Of a stretch of DNA of 60,510 bases, positions 38,398 to 52,896 are shown piece after piece. A program made the position numbers and the translations under genes. The stretch comes from a virus. Its lineage: Duplodnaviria; Caudoviricetes. How positions within the stretch are numbered: the stretch's first letter is position 1; each line of letters begins with the position of its first letter. Location of the stretch: positions 1 to 60,510 of the IMG/VR virus record IMGVR_UViG_3300010052_000208, one strand, 5' to 3'. The notes beneath the pieces were generated by a model that searched no databases, was not told the origin of the DNA, and was given only the letters and a program-made list of their open reading frames with translations.

Positions 38398-39831
38398 ATG
38401 AAGAACCTTGGCATCTTTGCGGTACTGGGCGCGATCGCGCTCGTCGCCGTTGCCGCGCTGGCGCCTGACGCCATCGCAGCTGTTCACCACATCATCACCT
38501 CGCCGCCATCAGGTGGGCTCATGATCGCCTCCGCCGCCGCGGCCGCGATCGATCCCGAGGAATTGAAGAAGGCGGTCAGCCCGATCATGACCGCGTTCGA
38601 AGAGTTCAAGGCGACGAACGACAACCGGCTGAAGGAACTGGAAAAGAAGGGGGCCGCTGACGTCCTCACCGAGGAGAAGCTCACCCGTATCGAGAGCACG
38701 CTTTCCGGCTATGAAGGTCTCAATCAGAAGCTGACGCTCGCCGAGCAGCAGGCCAAGGCGGCGAAGGAAGTGGCAGATCGTATCGAGGTCGCCATGGCAA
38801 GGCTGCCGGCCGACGTCCGCGCCCGCCAGGACGGAGTCGAAGCCAAGGTGCTCCACGGCAAGTGGGCTCGCTCGGTTGTGTTCGCGCACGCCGTCGGTAT
38901 TCCGAACCTCGGCGAAGAGGAACGGAAGATCCTGGCCGACGTCGCCGCAGAGGCCAAGGCTCTCTCGATCACCCCCGACGCTGCCGGCGGCTATCTGGCG
39001 CCGACGGAATATGTCCGCGAGATCATCAAGGGCATTACGCTGTCTAGCCCGGTGCGCGGGCTGGTTCGTATCCGCAACACGGCCGCGAAGTCGGTTGAGC
39101 TGCCGAAGCGCACCGGCCAGTTCGCTGCCCGCCGCACCACGGAACAGAGCACCCGCACCGAAACCACGGGCCTTGCCTACGGTCTCGAAGAGGTGGCGGT
39201 CCCCGAGGGCTATGCGCTGATCGACATCTCCAACCAGATGCTGGAGGACAGCGCCTTCGACATGGAGGCGGAGATCCGCGGTGAGGCTTCCGAGCAGTTC
39301 GCCGTCAAGGAGGGCGCCGAGTTCGTCTCCGGCTCCGGCATCGGCGAAATGGAAGGTATCCTCACCAACGCCAGCGTCGGCGAGAACAACTCGGGCACCG
39401 CTGCCACGATCGCCGACTCCGATGGCCAGGCCAACGGCTTGCTGACCCTCAAGTATGCGATCAAGTCCGGGTATGCGCGTAACGCGACCTGGATCATGAA
39501 CCGCACCACGATGGGTTCGGTCCGCAAGCTCAAGGATGCCCAGAAGAACTACATCTGGATGCCTGGCATCCAGAACGGGCAGCCGAACACCATCGACGGC
39601 GATCCCTATGCCGAGTTCCCCGACATGCCGAACGAGGGTGCCGGCCTCTACCCGATAGCCTATGGCGACTTCCGCCGCGCCTACACGATGATCGACCGCA
39701 TCGTGATGGAGATGCTGCGCGATCCCTATACGCAGGCCACCGCCGGCAACATCCGCTTCATCTTCCGCAAGCGGTGGGGCGGCAAGGTTGTGCTGGCCGA
39801 GGCCATCCGCAAGCTGAAGTGCTCGACCTGA
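38398..39831 (+). CDS. HK97-fold major capsid protein with hydrophobic N-terminal extension
   Basis: Coiled-coil delta domain, GGYL.P, ISNQMLEDS, GDFRRAY, RDPY. Confidence 0.95.
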   Translation: MKNLGIFAVLGAIALVAVAALAPDAIAAVHHIITSPPSGGLMIASAAAAAIDPEELKKAVSPIMTAFEEFKATNDNRLKELEKKGAADVLTEEKLTRIESTLSGYEGLNQKLTLAEQQAKAAKEVADRIEVAMARLPADVRARQDGVEAKVLHGKWARSVVFAHAVGIPNLGEEERKILADVAAEAKALSITPDAAGGYLAPTEYVREIIKGITLSSPVRGLVRIRNTAAKSVELPKRTGQFAARRTTEQSTRTETTGLAYGLEEVAVPEGYALIDISNQMLEDSAFDMEAEIRGEASEQFAVKEGAEFVSGSGIGEMEGILTNASVGENNSGTAATIADSDGQANGLLTLKYAIKSGYARNATWIMNRTTMGSVRKLKDAQKNYIWMPGIQNGQPNTIDGDPYAEFPDMPNEGAGLYPIAYGDFRRAYTMIDRIVMEMLRDPYTQATAGNIRFIFRKRWGGKVVLAEAIRKLKCST

Positions 39832-43989: not shown

Positions 43990-44436
43990 ATGACGACCGT
44001 TTCACAGGCTCGCGCCGTTGTCCGGTCGCGGATCGAGGCCAACATCACTTCGGTCCCGCTGCGCTGGCAAAATGAGGATGGCGGCCCGCTGGCCGACGTT
44101 CCTGAGCCATTCGTCTATGTCGAGTTCAACACGGAACGCGGGTCGATCGCCGGGTTCGGTGGCGGCCGAGGGAACAATCTTTACCGCAACCCGGCGCGCA
44201 TCGAGGCATATGTCTTCGTGCCGAAGGGCTCGGGGCTAGACCAAGCCGAGAGCCTCGCGGAACAGATCGCCGCGCTGTTCCGGTCCTATCGTGACGCCGA
44301 CATCTCCTGCTTCGACGCCACGGTATACCCGGGCGGCGACGGGGCGGCGCTGACCCCGCCGGGCTTGTCGTCAGAGGTCGGAAATTACTTCTGGGCTGGC
44401 GTCGAAATCAGCCTCCACTTCGATCAGATCGGCTGA
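43990..44436 (+). CDS. Probable tail terminator
   Basis: Precedes tail tube; VFVPKGSG motif. Confidence 0.6.
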   Translation: MTTVSQARAVVRSRIEANITSVPLRWQNEDGGPLADVPEPFVYVEFNTERGSIAGFGGGRGNNLYRNPARIEAYVFVPKGSGLDQAESLAEQIAALFRSYRDADISCFDATVYPGGDGAALTPPGLSSEVGNYFWAGVEISLHFDQIG

Positions 44437-44466: not shown

Positions 44467-45717
44467 ATGTCGCTCGCTGAAGGCGTGGCCGCACGCATCG
44501 CATACAAGTTCTACTCCGACGCCGCTATCATTCCGGGCGTGGAACCGGCTGCCGGCACCGATCCCGGCGCATCCGGCGCGCAGATCCTGCGCCGTGTCGG
44601 TTCGACGCTGGCCTTGTCGAAGGACACTTACCAGTCCGGCGAAATTCGCTCCGATCGGCAGATCGCGGACTTCCGCCACGGCGTCCGCCGCGTGTCGGGC
44701 AACATTTCGGGCGAGCTTTCCCCGCTGACCTATGCGGACTTCTTCGAAGCGGCTTTCCGTGGCACCTGGTCTGCGTCTGCTGTCACCAAGAGCAACAGCG
44801 AGTTGACTTCCGTCGCGGCGGATAATGCGACGAGCAAGTTCACCTTCGGCGGCGGCAATCCGGTTACCGAAGGCCTGCGCGTCGGCATGGTCATGCGCTT
44901 CACTAACCTGTCGGAAGCGGCCAACAACAGCCGGAATTTCGTTATCCTGTCGTTCGGCGGCGCCAGCAACCGCGAGGTCACCGTCTACCCGGCGCCGACG
45001 GACATGGGCGCGGACTCCGCATTCAACGTTGCCACGGTCGGTCGCCAGTTGATCGTTCCGTCGACCGGCCATGTCAGCCGCAAGGTGGCCGTCGAAATCT
45101 ACAACGAGGATGTCGACGTCGCCCGGCTGTTCACCGAAAACCGCGTCGGCAGCTTCAACGTCCAACTCCCGGCCTCGGGCATGTCGACGGTCGAGTTCGG
45201 CATGCTCGGCCGCAACATGGAGATCTACGAGGACGGCGCGGCGCCATTCTTCACTTCGCCGACCGCCGCCACCACAACGGGCCTCTTGGCGGCCGTGAAC
45301 GGGCTCCTGCGCATCGGTGGCGACACCGTGGCTGTGGTGACCGCGGCGAATATCCAGATGGACCTTTCGCCTTCCGCTGATCCGGTTGTCGGTTCCAACC
45401 TTGTGCCGGAAATCTTCCTCGGCCGCGCCAACGTCACCGGCCAGATGACCGCGTTCTTCGAAAACCCGGACCTGATCAACGACTTCATCAACGAGACCGA
45501 GATTGAATTCCTCGCCTATCTGACGGCCAGCAACGATGCCGCCGCCCAGGCGATGACGTTTTACCTGCCCCGCATCAAGCTTGGCGGCGCCGATCTGCAG
45601 ACGGCAGGCGAAGGAGGCCAGTCGATCACACTGCCGTTCCAGGCGCTCAAATATGAGGGCGCGGCGGCTGGCGTCGAGCAGACCACGGTCCAGATTTTCG
45701 ACACGCAGGTTAGCTAA
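44467..45717 (+). CDS. Tail tube (major tail) protein
   Basis: S.EIRSDRQ..RHG...V.G.I..ELS pattern; position. Confidence 0.8.
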   Translation: MSLAEGVAARIAYKFYSDAAIIPGVEPAAGTDPGASGAQILRRVGSTLALSKDTYQSGEIRSDRQIADFRHGVRRVSGNISGELSPLTYADFFEAAFRGTWSASAVTKSNSELTSVAADNATSKFTFGGGNPVTEGLRVGMVMRFTNLSEAANNSRNFVILSFGGASNREVTVYPAPTDMGADSAFNVATVGRQLIVPSTGHVSRKVAVEIYNEDVDVARLFTENRVGSFNVQLPASGMSTVEFGMLGRNMEIYEDGAAPFFTSPTAATTTGLLAAVNGLLRIGGDTVAVVTAANIQMDLSPSADPVVGSNLVPEIFLGRANVTGQMTAFFENPDLINDFINETEIEFLAYLTASNDAAAQAMTFYLPRIKLGGADLQTAGEGGQSITLPFQALKYEGAAAGVEQTTVQIFDTQVS

Positions 45718-45826: not shown

Positions 45827-46255
45827 ATGAGCAAATTCGCAGCACTGGCGGCCGACGTCGCCACGCCCTATCGCGTCGAGCTTCTCGATCCGCTCACCGA
45901 TGAGCCGATCAAGGACAAGCAGGGCAACCCCGCCTATATCGATGTGTTCTCCACCGACAGCGCTCCCGGCCGGGCATTCGATGCGACCGAGCGCAAGAAG
46001 GTGACCGAGAAGGCGATCAAGGGCCGTTCGGCCGATCTCCCCGACCAGCTCGAGGCGAACTTCGCCAAGGCCGCCAAGCTGACCAAGGCGTGGCACCTGG
46101 TCGATCCTTCCTCCGGCGCCGTGATCGACGTTCCCTGCAATGCCGACAATGCGCTGGAACTCTATTCCGAGCCAGGCATGGCGTGGCTGTTCAGCCAGGT
46201 GTGGGTCGGAGCGACCAATCCCGCAAATTTCATGAAGCGCTCGCCGAAGAACTGA
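45827..46255 (+). CDS. Tail assembly chaperone (gpG-like)
   Basis: Between tube and tape measure; ends over slippery site. Confidence 0.8.
   Translation: MSKFAALAADVATPYRVELLDPLTDEPIKDKQGNPAYIDVFSTDSAPGRAFDATERKKVTEKAIKGRSADLPDQLEANFAKAAKLTKAWHLVDPSSGAVIDVPCNADNALELYSEPGMAWLFSQVWVGATNPANFMKRSPKN
46225..46231 (+). other. -1 ribosomal frameshift site A-AAT-TTC giving gpGT-like fusion to 46650
   Basis: X XXY YYZ heptamer in frame; -1 frame continues KFHEALAEEL...YLWNWF...W.DVKAW. Confidence 0.8.
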
Positions 46256-46618
46256 TTGCCTTCGCCGAGCAGGAATTCCGGGCTGCCCGCGTCAAGGCGG
46301 ACGGCTCCACCGAACGACAGCATAACGAGGCAGCCGACAGGATCAGGGCCGGCCTGCCGAAGAAAAAACAGACCAGGCAGCAGCCTGGTCGGGCGCACTT
46401 CTGCCCTCCCGATCTGATCTATTTGTGGAACTGGTTTGTCGAGCTTGTCGGAGGCTCATCCGGCGGCGGATCAGGCCCGGCAACCATCGCATGGGTCGAC
46501 GTCAAGGCATGGTCGGAACTGACCGGCGAAGCGGTCGAGCCATGGGAGGTTCGGCTGATGATGCGGCTTTCCGGTATCCGGGCGGAGATCGAAAGCGAAG
46601 AGATCAGGAAGTCGCTCG

Positions 46619-47257
46619 ATGGCGCTGCGGGTAAAGGTCGAGCCGGTTGATAGCTGGGTGGCGGTGACGGTAAGCGAACTGCTGTCACCCGAAGCAAGGT
46701 CAGTTGCTGTCGCCGAGTTTGCCAGAGGGCGTCTCGCAGAGGCGCTCGACAAAAACAGCAAGGCGGTCGGTGGCCTCACGCCCTACGATCAATTCGTCGA
46801 CGGCCGCAAGGGGGCGATGCTGGAAAGCGTCAACCCGGAACGCGGCGTCATCGTCTTTGAGTTCGAATTGGTCAGTGAGGTATTGGCCTGGATAATGGCG
46901 ATGCTGATTGAGCGGTCGCCCCGGCGATCTGGGCGATATCGCGACAGCCACGCCTTCTTTGCGGACGGCGCGCAGGCCGCGGTCGGGTCTCCGTCGCCGG
47001 CCGACGAATATAGCTTTGCCAATCTACAGCCTTACGCCCGAAAGCTGGAGATCGGGCGGACGGAGAGCGGACGCGACTTCCTGATCTCGGTCCCGAACCG
47101 GATCTATGAGCGCACGGCGAAAGACGCCCGTGCCCGGTTTGGCAATGTGGCGAAGATCGGTTTCACCTATCGCGGCTATGCTGGCGGCGGGGTGGTCGGC
47201 GGACGCGCCGGGAACAAGTCGAAGCTGCGATACCCAACGATCACGGTGAGGCCATAA
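46619..47257 (+). CDS. Tail completion/neck protein (HK97 gp10-like)
   Basis: SP.RSGRYR.SH, N.QPYARKLE. Confidence 0.6.
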   Translation: MALRVKVEPVDSWVAVTVSELLSPEARSVAVAEFARGRLAEALDKNSKAVGGLTPYDQFVDGRKGAMLESVNPERGVIVFEFELVSEVLAWIMAMLIERSPRRSGRYRDSHAFFADGAQAAVGSPSPADEYSFANLQPYARKLEIGRTESGRDFLISVPNRIYERTAKDARARFGNVAKIGFTYRGYAGGGVVGGRAGNKSKLRYPTITVRP

Positions 47258-47570
47258 GCGCATCGGCGTACAGATCGAAAGAGTTGCGCTCAAATGCCGT
47301 CAGCGACGCGTAGGTATAGCACAGACGAGCGTGGCTGAGATCAGACGGCGATAGCTCCCCGCGTGCGTCAGTAATTGCCTTGGCCAGGGCTGTACATCTG
47401 CCTGTTGCGGCCAGCTCTGTGGCCGCGTCTCGCATCGCTGCTGTAACCGCAGCCTCCGCTTTGGCCTGATATGCAGCTTGGCGGGCAACGTGAGTCCGGT
47501 ATTCGCCCCAAAAATAGTAGCCAATCGTGGCGAGTACCGCGAGGCACGTCACCGCCTGCAAAAACTTCAT
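47241..47570 (-). CDS. Reverse-oriented small membrane protein (moron-like)
   Basis: GGGAGG RBS; N-terminal TM helix. Confidence 0.7.
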   Translation of the reverse strand: MKFLQAVTCLAVLATIGYYFWGEYRTHVARQAAYQAKAEAAVTAAMRDAATELAATGRCTALAKAITDARGELSPSDLSHARLCYTYASLTAFERNSFDLYADALMASP

Positions 47571-47617
47571 AGCCAGGCCTCCCGATCCGGCCTGAGCATA
47601 TCCAGCGGAAGACCTTG

Positions 47618-49633
47618 ATGGCAACAGTACAGGAAGCGGTTCGCCGGCTGACGGTCGAAGCGCGCTCCGTCAATGTCAAGGAAACGGCCAAGGATGCGCA
47701 GGCTCTAGGCACAGCGCTCGACGGCGTTGCCGTGTCCGGAGCACGCGCCGAGAAGACGACGCAGAGCCTGGACACGCGCCTTGGCGCCATCCAACGCCGA
47801 TATGACGAAAACTATCGCTCGCAGATGGATCTCGCCCGCGTCGAGCGCACCTTGGCCTCAGCGCAGCAGCAGGGTCTGATTACGCTCCAGCGCCGCGTCG
47901 AACTGCTTGGCATGGCGGCTGAACGGCACAATCTGGCGACATCGGCGATCCGTCAGCAGACCGACGCGACCGAACGCCTGACCAACGTTCAGCGCATGCA
48001 GGCTGCTGCCAATTCGAACACTCCCGGCACCCTGAATACCGCCAATATCGCCGCCCAGTTCCAGGATATCGGCGTCACCTCCGCCATGGGCATGTCGCCC
48101 ATTCAGATCGCCCTCCAACAGGGCACGCAGCTTTCGGCGGTATTCGAGGGCCTGAAGGCCAGCGGCCACGGCGTGGGCACCGCTTTGGCGAGTGCTTTCA
48201 CCTCGATCATAAGCCCGGTGTCGCTCGTGACGATTGGCGTCGTTGCGTTGACCGCGGTTGCCATCCAGTATTTTTCCAGCGTCGTTTCCGGCGGGCAGAA
48301 GAGCGAAGAGACGCTCGAAAAGGAAGCGGCGCTGATCCGCGAGGTCGCCAACACCTGGGGCGCGGCCCTTCCTGCTTTGAAAGCGTTCGCTGACGAGCGA
48401 CAGAAACTGGCCGATCAGACCAAGATGCGCGAGGCGACCGACCTCGGCCTTGAGGCGGCTTATGCCGATGCGGCTGAGCAGGTTCGCATGCTCAACGCCG
48501 AGGTCGTCGACACTGTTTCCCGAATGCAGATGCTTGGGGCGTCGGACACGGAAATTGTCACCCTTCAGCGGGCGTTTGCCGACCTCGACAAGGCCGTCCA
48601 GGCTCAGAATGGCGGCGTCGAGGAAGCAAACCGGGTCAGCGCTGCCCTCGCAACCCTTTTCAATTCCGTAGCATCGCCGGCGACAGCTGCACTGGCTGGC
48701 CGATTCGACGCCTTGGCCGGATCGATCGCGACCGCGAGCGCCAATGCGATAAAGCTACGCTCCGACCTGGCGATACAGGACTTCAATTCACGCAACCCGC
48801 TGGGCACGATACCAGCGGTTTTTAGCGGCGGCGGCGTTTTCCAGAATGAGGCCGACGTTCAGAACGATCGCGCGAACTCGACGAAATCGCAGTATGAGAT
48901 CGAGCAGGAAGCCCTCGCGCGGCAGGGGCAAGCTGCGGCCGAAGCCGCCGCCAGGCAAGCCGAGGCGGCTGCAGCGGCTCAGATGCAGCGCCTGGAGAGC
49001 TTGCAGGCGTCGCTTCTTACCGAGGAAGAGACTGCTCGCAACAGCTACGCAAACCAACTGATCGACATCCAGGAGTTCTATGACGCCAACCTGATCCAGG
49101 ATGCCGACTACTACGAGCTGATCGAGCGCGCAAAGCAGGAGCATGAAGACCGGCTTCTGGCGATTGCGCAGCAGCGTCTGGAAACAGAGCAGCGTATCCG
49201 TTTGGCATCGTTCGATGCTGTGGCGTCAGCGCTGTCCAGCGTCGGCAGTCTCCTTGAAAGCCAGGGCGAAAAGCAGCTTGCGACCTCAAAGGCGTTCGGC
49301 ATCGCGTCTGCTCTGATCTCGACCTACACCGGCATCGCGAAGGCCATGGAACTGCCGTTCCCGCTCAACTGGGCTCAGTCGGCCGCCGTGGCCGCGCATG
49401 GCTTCGCGCAGGTCGCTGCGATCAGCTCGACAGGCAAAGGCGGCGGCGGCGGTGCGGCGTCCGGCGGTGCGGCCGGCCCAAACGCCGCGGCTGGTGCGAA
49501 TGCGGCGCCGCAGCAAGCTGTGTCGATCAACCTCACCGGCGATGTCTACAGCCGGCAATCAGTCGAGGACCTGCTTGCGCAGATCAATGAAGCCGTGTCC
49601 GACGGGCACAAGCTGGTAATCAGGACCGTCTGA
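47618..49633 (+). CDS. Tail tape measure protein
   Basis: NIAAQFQDIGV....GMSP..IALQQGTQL motif; Ala-rich helical. Confidence 0.92.
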   Translation: MATVQEAVRRLTVEARSVNVKETAKDAQALGTALDGVAVSGARAEKTTQSLDTRLGAIQRRYDENYRSQMDLARVERTLASAQQQGLITLQRRVELLGMAAERHNLATSAIRQQTDATERLTNVQRMQAAANSNTPGTLNTANIAAQFQDIGVTSAMGMSPIQIALQQGTQLSAVFEGLKASGHGVGTALASAFTSIISPVSLVTIGVVALTAVAIQYFSSVVSGGQKSEETLEKEAALIREVANTWGAALPALKAFADERQKLADQTKMREATDLGLEAAYADAAEQVRMLNAEVVDTVSRMQMLGASDTEIVTLQRAFADLDKAVQAQNGGVEEANRVSAALATLFNSVASPATAALAGRFDALAGSIATASANAIKLRSDLAIQDFNSRNPLGTIPAVFSGGGVFQNEADVQNDRANSTKSQYEIEQEALARQGQAAAEAAARQAEAAAAAQMQRLESLQASLLTEEETARNSYANQLIDIQEFYDANLIQDADYYELIERAKQEHEDRLLAIAQQRLETEQRIRLASFDAVASALSSVGSLLESQGEKQLATSKAFGIASALISTYTGIAKAMELPFPLNWAQSAAVAAHGFAQVAAISSTGKGGGGGAASGGAAGPNAAAGANAAPQQAVSINLTGDVYSRQSVEDLLAQINEAVSDGHKLVIRTV

Positions 49634-49634
49634 C

Positions 49635-50444
49635 ATGCCAGTCGTCATTTCCCAGGCTCTCGTCCTCGCGACGCCAACCGAGGGTGGACCGGATGCACCG
49701 CTGATCGGCTGGCACAATCTGGTAACAGCGGCTGGCGTCGCCGCCGACGAGGAAGACGCCGACTATCCGGCAACCAATCTCGCGAATCCGTCGACCGCGC
49801 TGCGGTGGCAGGCGGAGACGACCGACGATCAATACCTGACCTTCACGCTGACGGGGTCCGACGAGATCGATTACGTCGGCATCGCCCGGCACAACCTCGG
49901 ATCGGGCCAGGTCACCGTGTCGGTCGAGTCTTGGGACGGCGATAGCTGGGAAGAGGTCGCTGCGGAATACATCCCGGCCAGCGACCAGCCCATCGTCATC
50001 CGATTCGAGGAAGTTCAGCCATCCGAGATCAGGATCAAGCTGCAGCCCGGTTCCGTGATCCCGAGCATCGCCGTGGTTTATGTCGGGAAACTGCTTCGAC
50101 TGCAGCGTGGCGTCCAGCCCGGCCTGATACCTATCCTCTGGGCCGCGTCGGACACCGTCGTCTCTTCGGAATCGGAAGCCGGAGATTATCTCGGCGCCAT
50201 CGTCATGCGCCAGTCGCTGTCGATGTCAGTTTCGGTGCAGTGGGTCGACTACGACTGGTGGAACACCAACATGCCTGGATTCATCACCCACGCCCGCCAG
50301 CGGCAGCCATTCTTCTTTGCCTGGCTCCCGGCGACCTATCCGAACGAAGTCGGCTTCGCGTGGACGCAGAGCGATATCCGCCCTGAGATGCAGAGCAATC
50401 TCATGGTGAACTTCAGTCTCGATATGAAGGTCGTCGCCCTGTGA
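49635..50444 (+). CDS. Probable distal tail protein
   Basis: Immediately after tape measure. Confidence 0.6.
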   Translation: MPVVISQALVLATPTEGGPDAPLIGWHNLVTAAGVAADEEDADYPATNLANPSTALRWQAETTDDQYLTFTLTGSDEIDYVGIARHNLGSGQVTVSVESWDGDSWEEVAAEYIPASDQPIVIRFEEVQPSEIRIKLQPGSVIPSIAVVYVGKLLRLQRGVQPGLIPILWAASDTVVSSESEAGDYLGAIVMRQSLSMSVSVQWVDYDWWNTNMPGFITHARQRQPFFFAWLPATYPNEVGFAWTQSDIRPEMQSNLMVNFSLDMKVVAL

Positions 50445-50617
50445 ACCGCCGGGCTTTCCTTGTGGGTCTGACAGCCGCGCCATTTGCGGCGACCGGCGAT
50501 CCGCGTGCATCCGAAGCCATCTCGATCAGGATTCAGGGCGATAGCTATTCGAAGCAGGACGTTGAAGACCTTCTCCGCTCCATAAACGACGCCGTTCGTG
50601 ACGGGCACGCCAAGTGA
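50441..50617 (+). CDS. 58-aa protein: twin-arginine signal plus copy of tape-measure C-terminus (not in ORF track)
   Basis: MNRRAFLVGLTAAPFAATGDPRASEAISIRIQGDSYSKQDVEDLLRSINDAVRDGHAK; GTGA overlaps at both ends. Confidence 0.8.
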   Translation: MNRRAFLVGLTAAPFAATGDPRASEAISIRIQGDSYSKQDVEDLLRSINDAVRDGHAK

Positions 50618-52896
50618 GCAAGGCGCTGACGTTCATCGAACTCGACATCGAGTACTGCAGCCTGAGCTATGGCGTTTCGCCCTGCACTGCGACATTGTCC
50701 GGCGGGAGCCCGACGGGAACCATCAAGTGTTTCAACAGCAAGGGCACATGCCAGGATCGCGTCAACTTCGCGACCAGCACCGTCACGCTGCGCTTTGCCG
50801 AGGGCACCGCATACCTGGCCGAAAGCGGCATCGAGGCCATCGCCTGCATCGAGGACATCGCGTTCACGCCGGGCACGATCTCGCTTGGCGAAGATCTGGG
50901 AACCCGGTCATCGCTCAAGGTCACCATGGCGGACTTCCCATGGTCGGACACCGGGCCGGGCTTCGACAAGTATCTCGCCGATCGAACCTATGATCCCTAC
51001 CGGCAGGGAACGTTCTGGGGCAAGTTCCGGTCACGGCATCCGTCATTGCGGGGACGGGCGATCCGCGTCATCAGGGGCTTTCTCGGGCAGACGCTCGAGG
51101 AAATGGAAACCCGCCACTATGTCGTGGAGAGCATCGACGGGCCGGCGCGTGACGGCAAATATGCCATCATCAGCAAGGATGTCCTGAAGCTTCTCGACGG
51201 CGACCGCGCGCAGGCGCCGAAGATGTCGAACGGCTTCCTCGCCGGCGACATCAACGACAGCACGACCAGCGCCACGCTTTCGCCGTCCGGCATCGGCAAC
51301 CTGGAATATCCGTCGTCTGGATATGTGGCGATCGGCGGATCGGAAATTTGCGCCTTCACCCGGTCGGGGAATGCCCTGACGTTGACGCGCGGCCAGTTCA
51401 ACACGACGGCCGTGGCGCATAGCGCCTCAGATCGTGTCCAGATCTGCATCCGCTACACCAGCGCCGACATCGCGGACGTGCTGAACGACCTGATGGTCAA
51501 CTATGCGGCGATGCCAGGGAGCTACATCGATCTGGTCGGCTGGAAGGCGGAGACGACGACCTTCCTGCGCACGCTCTATACAGCGCTGATCGCTGAACCG
51601 ACTTCAGTGGAGAAGCTGACCAAGGAACTGATCCGGCAGGGCGCGCTTTCGCTGTGGTGGGACGACATCGCCCGACTGATCCGCCTCAAGGTGCTTCGGC
51701 AGATCGACACCGACGCCGCGGTCTTCGATGAAAACGTGATCGTCGCCGACAGCCTGGCCATCAGCGATCAGCCGACGAAACGGCTATCGCAGGTCTGGAC
51801 CTACTTTGCGCAGATCAACCCGCTGAAGGGTGTAGACGATACTGACAACTACCGCTCCTGCTCGGTGGTGGCCAACCTCGAGCTGGAAAGCGACTACGGG
51901 TCGCCGGCTATCGAGAAAATCTATTCGCGGTGGATCCCGCTGGGCGGCCGCGCCATCGCGGAGCGCATCGGTGAGATCCTGGTCGGGCGGTTCGGGCGGC
52001 CGCCGCGCCGGTTCAAGCTGACGGCAAGCCGTGGCGGCCCGGTGACGCCGACGGCAGGCATCGGCTACAAGATGTCGTGGCGGACGCTGCAGGACGCCAC
52101 GGGCGAGCGCATAGAGGTCCCGGCCCAGGTCGTCAGGATCGATGCGCAGTCGGCGCTGATACCAACCGAGCTCGAGGAGTTCGATTTCTCGTTCGTCGAC
52201 GACGGCGACCCCACGGTCATCTTCGATATCGACACCTACAATGTGAACGCGCGGACGGTTTTCGATCTCTTCTATCCGACGCCGGAAAGCGGCGACGATG
52301 TCTATTTCATCGTCGAGGCCGGCGTGAAGATCGGATCGACCAGCACGTCGCAACCGGCCTTCAACGTCGGATCGTGGCCATCTGGCGTGAATGTCCACCT
52401 GATCGTGCGCGGCCGCATCCAGGGCAAGGGCGGCAAGGGCGGGGCCGGCACCGGCCAGAATGGCTTTGTCGGCGGCCCTGCGCTCTACACGCGCCGCGCC
52501 ATCACCATCGAGAAACTGGAATCCGGCGACCCCGAGGGCGAGATCTTCGGCGGTGGCGGTGGTGGCGGTGGCGGCTATGGCTTGGCCGTAGGCAAAGATG
52601 CGGGTGGCGGTGGTGGCGGCGGCGCAGGCTTCGATCCCGGCCAGGGCGCCAGCGACGGCGCCTATGGCGGCTACAGCGACCCCGGCACGACGGAAGCCGG
52701 AGGCAACGGCAGCGACGGTGTCGGCAGCTCGAACGGCGGCAATGGTGGCGGGCCGGGTCTGTCCGGGCAGAACGGCTCCAAGCAGGGTTTAGGATCGCCT
52801 GGGACGGGCGGCGCGGCAGGCGCGGCGATCGACGGCGTCAGCTACGTGACCCTGACAGGGGCATCGCCCGACAGACGCGGCCCACAAATCAACTGA
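50614..52896 (+). CDS. Tail tip/hub protein with Gly-rich C-terminus
   Basis: 760 aa; N-terminal Cys cluster, poly-Gly C-terminal repeats. Confidence 0.72.
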   Translation: MSKALTFIELDIEYCSLSYGVSPCTATLSGGSPTGTIKCFNSKGTCQDRVNFATSTVTLRFAEGTAYLAESGIEAIACIEDIAFTPGTISLGEDLGTRSSLKVTMADFPWSDTGPGFDKYLADRTYDPYRQGTFWGKFRSRHPSLRGRAIRVIRGFLGQTLEEMETRHYVVESIDGPARDGKYAIISKDVLKLLDGDRAQAPKMSNGFLAGDINDSTTSATLSPSGIGNLEYPSSGYVAIGGSEICAFTRSGNALTLTRGQFNTTAVAHSASDRVQICIRYTSADIADVLNDLMVNYAAMPGSYIDLVGWKAETTTFLRTLYTALIAEPTSVEKLTKELIRQGALSLWWDDIARLIRLKVLRQIDTDAAVFDENVIVADSLAISDQPTKRLSQVWTYFAQINPLKGVDDTDNYRSCSVVANLELESDYGSPAIEKIYSRWIPLGGRAIAERIGEILVGRFGRPPRRFKLTASRGGPVTPTAGIGYKMSWRTLQDATGERIEVPAQVVRIDAQSALIPTELEEFDFSFVDDGDPTVIFDIDTYNVNARTVFDLFYPTPESGDDVYFIVEAGVKIGSTSTSQPAFNVGSWPSGVNVHLIVRGRIQGKGGKGGAGTGQNGFVGGPALYTRRAITIEKLESGDPEGEIFGGGGGGGGGYGLAVGKDAGGGGGGGAGFDPGQGASDGAYGGYSDPGTTEAGGNGSDGVGSSNGGNGGGPGLSGQNGSKQGLGSPGTGGAAGAAIDGVSYVTLTGASPDRRGPQIN

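Follow-up and report, generated by a model that had tools for sequence, protein, structure and literature searches.

Several proteins that act on the tape-measure protein (TMP) of tailed phages during DNA entry are located in the envelope, and these, namely Ltp of TP-J34, HK97 gp15 and SNIPE, are among the described systems with which a small gene of the provirus analysed here can be compared. Ltp of TP-J34 reportedly targets the TMP, and HK97 gp15 is said to act by TMP-directed exclusion. SNIPE is a nuclease reported to associate with the TMP while DNA is being injected (PMC13190303), and exclusion lipoproteins of the Ltp type are the subject of PMC3952083. All three are TMP-binding proteins whose genes are expressed from the prophage or from the host genome, whereas the product of the small gene, a 58-aa protein designated P0001, is itself a copy of a piece of the TMP and is encoded within the late tail operon. 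No sequence similarity of P0001 to defence or exclusion proteins was detected in the PADLOC-independent families searched.

The two parts of P0001 each have a known counterpart. The C-terminal part corresponds to the C-terminal module of siphophage TMPs (phrog_9483-type), with residues 16–56 matching the end of the profile and 19 of 30 residues identical to the end of the phage's own TMP; the TMPs of cultured Marinomonas and Pseudoalteromonas phages end in the same module. Compared with a TMP, P0001 is free-standing at 58 aa, has no coiled-coil ruler part and carries a twin-arginine (RR) leader in front. This leader resembles Tat signal peptides in that the members of the P0001 family have N-R-R-x-F-L followed by 15–17 uncharged, weakly hydrophobic residues, and three of the four members have a basic c-region ending in A-x-A. 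It differs from them in a very short n-region, in a cargo that is a 35-aa peptide and not a cofactor enzyme, and in the lack of a match to Tat hidden Markov models.

Two further comparisons concern the design of the gene. Like morons, the P0001 gene is a small extra gene that sits between conserved tail genes and is missing in close relatives; unlike morons, it has no promoter or terminator of its own and is translationally coupled on both sides. In mammals, Fv1, Fv4 and enJS56A1 are virus-derived fragments of structural genes that restrict related viruses. Their common point with P0001 is that a diverged piece of a virion protein is kept as a separate gene, but they belong to another domain of life and show no homology, and are conceptual analogues to which P0001 is likened by gene design alone. 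Full-text literature searches, judged on titles and abstract openings, yielded no description of a TMP or capsid fragment that is copied behind a signal sequence. Judged from its sequence, the 58-aa ORF is a real and probably functional gene, of a design that appears not to have been described previously.

The 58-aa gene and its place in the tail module

The window, by which we mean the whole stretch of DNA analysed, is a provirus record of 60.5 kb with a CheckV completeness of 94%. Its tail module is of the siphophage type. The relevant features are as follows.

43990–44436, tail terminator gene
44467–45717, gene of a 416-aa tail protein (phrog_290, 'minor tail protein')
46090–46650, gene of a 186-aa protein with a weak tail-assembly-chaperone match
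47615..49633 (+), TMP gene, 672 aa (Pfam TMP_2, E 9.8e-11; phrog_8892, E 6.8e-79)
49520..49609 (+), stretch of the TMP C-terminal end, residues 636–665 of 672, that is matched by the 58-aa ORF (BLASTP)
49635..50444 (+), 269-aa tail gene 3' of the TMP gene (phrog_11633, an unnamed family)
50426..50430 (+), GAAGG, Shine-Dalgarno-like, 10 nt 5' of the GTG at 50441
50441..50617 (+), 58-aa ORF (product P0001), with GTG start, 58 codons and TGA stop
50441..50497 (+), P0001 leader, residues 1–19 (N-R-R-A-F-L plus 15 uncharged residues, mean Kyte-Doolittle hydropathy (KD) 1.51)
50445..50617 (+), 173-bp insertion compared with relatives (alignment with L001, L002 and L003)
50519..50608 (+), TMP-C-end-like module of P0001, residues 27–56 (BLASTP, phrog_9483, tblastn)
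50614..52896 (+), 760-aa tail-tip/fibre (hub) gene (phrog_11439; Gly-rich, Gp38-like C-terminal part)

The product of the 58-aa ORF reads VNRRAFLVGLTAAPFAATGDPRAS followed by EAISIRIQGDSYSKQDVEDLLRSINDAVRDGHAK. An earlier note on this DNA had described the ORF as overlapping both neighbours by GTGA, and inspection of the sequence confirmed this: the GTG start overlaps the stop of the 269-aa gene, and the GTG start of the 760-aa gene overlaps the TGA stop of the small ORF. The position of the 269-aa gene suggests that it encodes a distal-tail protein. Sequence searches of the PDB detected homologues of neither the TMP end nor the 269-aa protein nor the hub. The reading frame of the small ORF stays open for 18 codons upstream of its GTG. 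A fusion of the 269-aa protein with the small ORF by frameshifting was considered and rejected, as inspection of the final 18 codons of the upstream gene revealed no slippery heptamer.

Relatives of this locus were found by searching with the neighbouring 269-aa protein. In L001, L002 and L003, in which this protein is 93%, 73% and 49% identical to that of the window, respectively, the 269-aa gene directly overlaps the tip gene (by GTGA, TTGA or ATGA). Alignment of the window with these relatives revealed a clean and recent gain of 173 bp with GTGA on both borders, and the ends of the insertion are ambiguous by 4 nt because this 4-nt repeat bounds the insert. The GC content of the insert was unremarkable.

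Absence from relatives was among the signs by which the earlier note proposed to recognize a passive duplication remnant, and this half of the case was indeed observed in every close relative examined. None of 115 related loci had a TMP-end copy at the junction of the 269-aa and hub genes, tblastn with P0001 matching TMP C-terminal ends only; when the complete records of the five closest relatives were searched with the family profile, it likewise matched TMP ends only, and no small gene was found. The small gene is therefore dispensable for this type of phage. Other extra genes were present at the same junction in L092/L093, L055, L050, L101/L102 and L112.

Neither promoter-like nor terminator-like sites were found in positions 49000–51500 (0 of each), and the predicted RNA fold of 50400–50660 was nothing special (z-score 0.23). 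The GAAGG 5' of the small ORF is the same site that precedes the start of the hub gene in L001. In the window, the hub gene has therefore probably come to rely on translational coupling via the small ORF, and the open frame might persist only through the need of the hub gene for this coupling. P0001 is encoded by a late-operon gene that is coupled on both sides, and not by an autonomous moron.

Tape-measure module, leader and free-standing homologues

Residues 27–56 of P0001 align without gaps to TMP residues 636–665, with 19 of 30 residues identical (BLASTP, pairwise E 9e-12). In a tblastn search of the whole record, the match widened to P0001 residues 9–56 (56% identity, E 1.1e-11), and the ungapped 20/34 identity to the TMP end given in the earlier note was reproduced with the codon table. 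In addition, the TMP family phrog_9483 matched P0001 residues 16–56 at the C-terminal end of the profile (positions 607–650 of 657, E 7.5e-4), and phmmer with P0001 recovered two TMPs from 1.84 billion proteins (whole-library E 6.8e-7 and 1.5e-4). Because of these BLASTP, tblastn, PHROG and phmmer matches, the similarity of P0001 to TMPs is far beyond chance. At 11 of the 20 residues identical between P0001 and its own TMP the codons are different; thus, the duplication is old, and the protein sequence has been maintained since. Across the aligned columns, which number only 32, P0001 is identical to the P0006 TMP end at 23, to its own TMP at 20 and to the other mimics at 14–17. The last 6–8 TMP residues have no counterpart in P0001. 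Toward its N-terminus, residues 9–24 can be aligned by tblastn to an Ala/Gly-rich linker of the TMP.

When 1.84 billion representatives were searched with P0001 by phmmer, nine proteins were found at E<=0.001: P0001 itself, three small proteins, two TMPs and three repeat proteins, the last of which were judged spurious. The small proteins, P0005 (74 aa, E 8.5e-8), P0008 (69 aa, E 5.9e-6) and P0011 (106 aa, E 6.2e-5), are each a singleton from a Logan assembly. All three open with MNRRAFFAGLALAP, and the leader is followed by a basic stretch ending in A-x-A (c-regions KKAAA, KEAIA and KKAVA, respectively) and then by a strand-helix-DGH TMP-end module. The four small proteins can be aligned from residue 1, with the leader as their best-conserved part, in which the invariant columns of the alignment (N2, R3, R4, A5, F6, G9, L10, A13, P14 and G19) are clustered. 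Overall identity of the homologues to P0001 is 43–50%, and the open frames kept at this level of identity argue for purifying selection. That the RR leader and the TMP-C-end module are conserved together in three distant, free-standing homologues indicates that the small ORF is a real gene and not noise, in agreement with the earlier note.

Within this family, P0001 is the most degenerate member, having a GTG start, a weaker h-region, no A-x-A and an 11-column gap in the linker. It also has no counterpart of the final 'LVIRTV'-type residues of the TMPs and the other members, and could be a decaying copy. The family consists of four members among 5.8 billion clusters, all of them singletons. 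A word-seeded search returned P0001 itself only among proteins of near length and nothing at E<=0.01 among longer proteins, and a search with the family profile returned the four known members only. Against cultured phages, P0001 had no tblastn match, and P0005 and P0011 matched the TMP ends of Marinomonas and Pseudoalteromonas phages only. No related loci were found when P0001 or the family alignment was compared with viral and genome contigs, and P0003 had no match in genome contigs.

The earlier note had further assigned a Tat signal to P0001. Residues 2–7, N-R-R-A-F-L, agree with the Tat consensus (S/T/N)-R-R-x-F-L-(K), and the h-region of 15 uncharged residues (mean KD 1.51) lies within the 12–20 residues typical of Tat signals; the h-regions of the homologues have 16–17 residues and KD values of 1.74–2.00. 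The c-region of P0001, GDPRAS, departs from a Tat signal in having no A-x-A signal-peptidase site. None of the four family members was matched at E<=10 by the curated Tat-signal profiles of Pfam (TAT_signal) and NCBIfam (TIGR01409), a result to be read with the fact that HMMER filters may lose very short matches. Tat export of P0001 is a putative property. Four ORFs of any length in the window passed a filter for an RR-x-[FLIVM]-[LFIVMA] N-terminus followed by at least 12 uncharged residues; besides one antisense ORF, the 58-aa ORF was the sole one of at least 40 aa.

Structure prediction for P0001 alone (AF2 monomer) gave a mean pLDDT of 57, with residues 1–30 below 50 and a predicted helix at residues 41–57 with pLDDT of about 75–80. 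A search of the ESM Atlas with P0001 had top scores of 0.76 and 0.75, under the level of a lead. A complex model of the 269-aa protein, hub residues 1–420 and P0001 residues 20–58, run without controls, scored 0.00, a value that counts neither for nor against binding.

Leader-plus-own-fragment genes in other viral records

We scanned IMG/VR with the DNA pattern of M-N-R-R-x-F-[LFI]-x-G-L and found this leader in 61 stretches, mostly in small ORFs. Whole-record comparisons covered 49 records (33 whole records and 16 loci that span the record whole or nearly whole), in which 49 pattern matches corresponded to 44 distinct ORFs of 40–210 aa. Eleven of the 61 stretches (L122, L127, L128, L135, L136, L138, L147, L148, L150, L163 and L167) fell outside this test, as they belonged to very long or giant-virus records, had an ORF outside 40–210 aa or one running off the edge of the locus, or were duplicates. 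The cargo of each ORF, defined as residue 21 to the end, was compared with the record it came from, after masking of the ORF. As a control set, 400 ORFs were drawn at random from 689 other small ORFs in the same records.

Matches of the cargo to the own record were detected for 8 of the 44 leader ORFs at E<1e-4 and for 13 at E<1e-2. Compared to these, the same cargo in reversed order gave 0/44 and 1/44, and the other small ORFs gave 3/400 and 17/400, respectively. The enrichment of leader ORFs over control ORFs was about 7- to 24-fold (Fisher p 6.6e-7 at E<1e-4 and 5.4e-7 at E<1e-2). Ten source proteins were scanned against PHROGs, of which seven were major head proteins (from several families), one was a head-tail adaptor, one was a TMP and one was an unnamed protein. 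For the 335-aa protein copied in L156/G001, it is the fragment that matches a major-head family, phrog_9953. The copied capsid residues vary by phage (1–32, 2–27, 8–53, 17–50, 45–60, 116–144, 254–304 and 270–292). The fragment sources of the proposed class of mini-genes would include the capsid N-arm, internal or C-terminal capsid segments, the TMP C-terminal end and adaptor/portal pieces. By eye, the source in L152, a 753-aa protein, was read as a protease-capsid fusion, the C-terminal end of which is copied, and most genes with capsid cargo appeared to have a longer common leader, MNRRGFLxGLxAAPAIVRxxxLMPVK.

Synonymous sites in the leader vary freely; therefore, its conservation is at the level of protein and not of DNA. 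A mobile element that carries the leader at the DNA level was considered and rejected, as synonymous sites differ among leaders. Defined as a small ORF that starts with M-N-R-R-x-F-[LFI]-x-G-L and whose remainder matches a larger virion protein encoded in the same record, the proposed class includes P0001.

One sister gene, in G015, also copied the end of a TMP. This 77-aa leader ORF matches residues 1492–1538 of the 1543-aa TMP of its own phage, and a gapped alignment pairs mini-protein residues 4–74 with TMP residues 1455–1538 (E 2e-10). Nearly the whole mini-protein can thus be aligned to the last 84 TMP residues, and it resembles a miniature TMP end. The TMP ends of G015 and the window show no significant similarity to each other (top BLASTP E 0.41 over 9 residues), and the G015 mini-protein and P0001 have the leader alone in common. 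As the two TMP ends are unrelated, the cargo follows the resident TMP. The copy of the phage's own TMP end that the earlier note had seen in the window hence recurs independently, and the co-variation of such a mimic with its own TMP end, which the note had named as a check, was found between these two phages.

The sister genes are embedded among their neighbours with 4-nt ATGA overlaps. In G015 the mini-gene is located in the neck region, 5' of the tail genes; that of L156 follows immediately after the large terminase; and that of L130 overlaps the genes on either side, with a 495-aa ORF downstream. These mini-genes are late-operon genes and not autonomous morons.

Possible roles of the mini-protein

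The sequence data show how the gene is built and conserved, that it was inserted recently, where it lies in the operon and that its design recurs; how P0001 may be targeted to the membrane, what it may bind and what its biological role may be are inferred. In the preferred reading, the ORF is a real and translated late gene, gained by the phage when 173 bp were inserted between two genes of the tail tip. Its first module, the conserved twin-arginine-type hydrophobic leader, would most likely direct the protein to the inner membrane, which it would either cross or remain anchored in. The second module copies, in diverged form, the terminal module of the TMP, about 35 residues long. It would occupy the site normally bound by the TMP end, whether within the tail-tip complex or on a partner in the envelope at DNA entry, and the leader would set where this C-terminal module acts. 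Possible consequences include interference with incoming related tails, a decoy function at a membrane-bound TMP-directed defence such as SNIPE, and service as a small membrane-active TMP-like subunit within the phage's own tail tip. For this general mechanism, in which a membrane-directed leader is joined to a TMP-end module that competes for or shares the TMP-end site, our confidence lies slightly below even. Against it stand the absence of the small gene from close relatives, the tiny family, the eroded state of P0001, the lack of a Tat-profile match and the poor AF2 monomer. In addition, the sister genes with capsid fragments have no obvious periplasmic target, so a reading based on export may not generalise.

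A broader and more tentative proposal is that tailed phages of Gram-negative hosts may carry an unrecognised modular class of late mini-genes, which combine a twin-arginine-type leader with a diverged fragment of one of the phage's own virion proteins. The fragment would be a handle for the binding site of its parent, the leader would link it with the inner membrane or with the Tat translocon, and the 58-aa gene would be the TMP member of the class. We regard this as a possibility worth stating, with the odds leaning against it.

The fragment might alternatively serve to dock the mini-protein in the virion at the place of the parent segment, i.e., in the tail tip for the TMP end and in the shell for capsid segments, the leader being a membrane-active payload that is delivered on ejection or removed on maturation. 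A similar logic is found in T4, whose internal proteins carry capsid-targeting sequences. Such docking would cover capsid and TMP cargo with one model, and it is consistent with the location of the mini-genes inside late structural operons with 4-nt overlaps (P0001, G015, L156 and L130), with a conserved leader in front of phage-specific cargo and with the likeness of the G015 mini-protein to a miniature TMP end. However, a membrane-active payload leaves unexplained why the N-R-R-x-F-[LFI] motif, the feature recognised by the Tat receptor on the cytoplasmic side, is so strict, and the gene is missing in close relatives that build the same tail; we consider docking rather unlikely. The same absence, in 5/5 close relatives and, for the junction, in 115 related loci, is what would be seen if P0001 were a passive scar, that is, a foreign TMP 3' end caught at a mosaic joint and kept open by hub coupling alone, with an accidental RR leader. 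The joint between the 269-aa gene and the hub gene holds other inserted genes in some relatives, the C-terminal end of P0001 is shorter than in its homologues, and the alignment of residues 9–24 to the Ala/Gly-rich TMP linker also suits this origin. It is hard to reconcile with three independent homologues that keep the start and the leader at 43–50% overall identity, with high synonymous divergence at conserved amino acids and with the about 7- to 24-fold enrichment of the leader-plus-own-fragment design over control ORFs. We consider a scar unlikely; it retains some weight because P0001 is eroded and dispensable.

Superinfection exclusion had been put forward in the earlier note. Here the mimic would be exported by a lysogen into its periplasm or inner membrane and, by competing with the TMP end, would block entry of sibling DNA. 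The leader features of P0001 and its homologues point in this direction, and TMP-directed exclusion and defence at the inner membrane do exist. The fit is nevertheless poor: the gene has no promoter or terminator of its own in 49000–51500 and is coupled inside a late tail operon, so expression from a repressed prophage is not expected, and the capsid-fragment cargo of the sister genes would be left without an explanation. We judge this role quite unlikely. Such cargo would be accounted for if the fragments copied virion epitopes seen by a defence sensor, with the leader trapping the sensor, once bound, at the membrane or at the translocon of the Tat system. The cargo is derived from major capsid, TMP and adaptor/portal-type proteins, and bacterial immune systems are commonly triggered by proteins of these kinds; moreover, different parts of the capsid protein are copied in different phages, and the mini-genes, lying in late operons, would be co-expressed with the triggers. 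This immune-decoy function seems very unlikely, and we know of no precedent for sensor eviction.

If functional, genes of the leader-plus-own-fragment design would represent a general and easily recognised reuse by phages of short capsid and tail pieces as separate membrane-directed mini-proteins, with a bearing on the assembly or delivery of tails and heads, on the competition of related phages and on how phages cope with defences that sense structural proteins. If the class is real, it would give phages a new means of controlling, tethering, delivering or shielding the proteins of their virions. Sub-100-aa ORFs that are skipped by gene callers can form conserved families. With a neighbour protein 93% identical to that of the window, L001 is a natural near-isogenic relative without the small gene.

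Leader ORFs and their cargo

In whole viral records (G001–G033) and viral loci (L119–L179), small ORFs starting with MNRRxF[LFI]xGL were found to bear pieces of a virion protein of their own phage, whether the major capsid protein, the tape measure or an adaptor. Own-phage fragments were matched at E<1e-2 by 13 of 44 such leader ORFs, compared to 17 of 400 control ORFs. A longer leader, MNRRGFLxGLxAAPAIVRxxxLMPVK, was common to many of them. Examples are:

L156:4841-5128, leader ORF
L166:553-789, leader ORF
L130:11853-12131, leader ORF
L152:11331-11573, leader ORF
L278:8736-8966, leader ORF

One leader ORF (L155:8492-8842), when compared with the capsid locus L199:3655-4695, contained two short capsid-like segments, corresponding to capsid protein residues 45-60 (E 1.4e-5) and about 232-246 (E 0.02). 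Since these regions are far apart in the capsid protein, the cargo following the leader is composite.

Locus L184 had a tandem pair of RR-leader ORFs (1103-1501 and 1501-1806), in which ATGA both ended the 133-aa ORF, containing ..TRRGFIRGITAAIALAASP.., and started the 102-aa capsid-fragment ORF. In record G027, the leader ORF was located within the direct terminal repeat and therefore occurred twice (positions 50-78 and 47435-47463).

The joint where the 269-aa gene meets the tip gene

This joint is an insertion hot spot, because in some relatives it was occupied by other extra genes:

L092:1042-1422, extra gene
L055:4669-5163, extra gene
L050:4621-5196, extra gene
L101:1309-2442, extra gene
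L112:4583-5032, extra gene

Two of the joint's extra genes had a GF(M/I)(S/T)DGA(T/S)(V/I)PR motif, which we take to be DUF1353-like.

Tip proteins of several relatives were 200–500 aa longer, owing to an insert that follows the conserved N-terminal ~35–60 residues, which represents domain swapping in this host-recognition protein:

L002:4825-7764, longer tip protein
L015:4804-7839, longer tip protein
L034:4819-8295, longer tip protein
L036:4801-7857, longer tip protein
L069:4676-8515, longer tip protein
L090:4807-8208, longer tip protein

Tape measure and putative capsid protein of the window

The final ~40 residues of P0006, a Logan-assembly tape measure of 633 aa, were nearly identical to the end of the window tape measure, and its N-terminal part, judged by eye, was quite unlike, which suggests that the C-terminal module has been swapped between tape measures. 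The putative major capsid protein ORF of the window (38398-38700) had a hydrophobic, signal-like start (MKNLGIFAVLGAIALVAVAALAPDAIAA) followed by a coiled-coil part.
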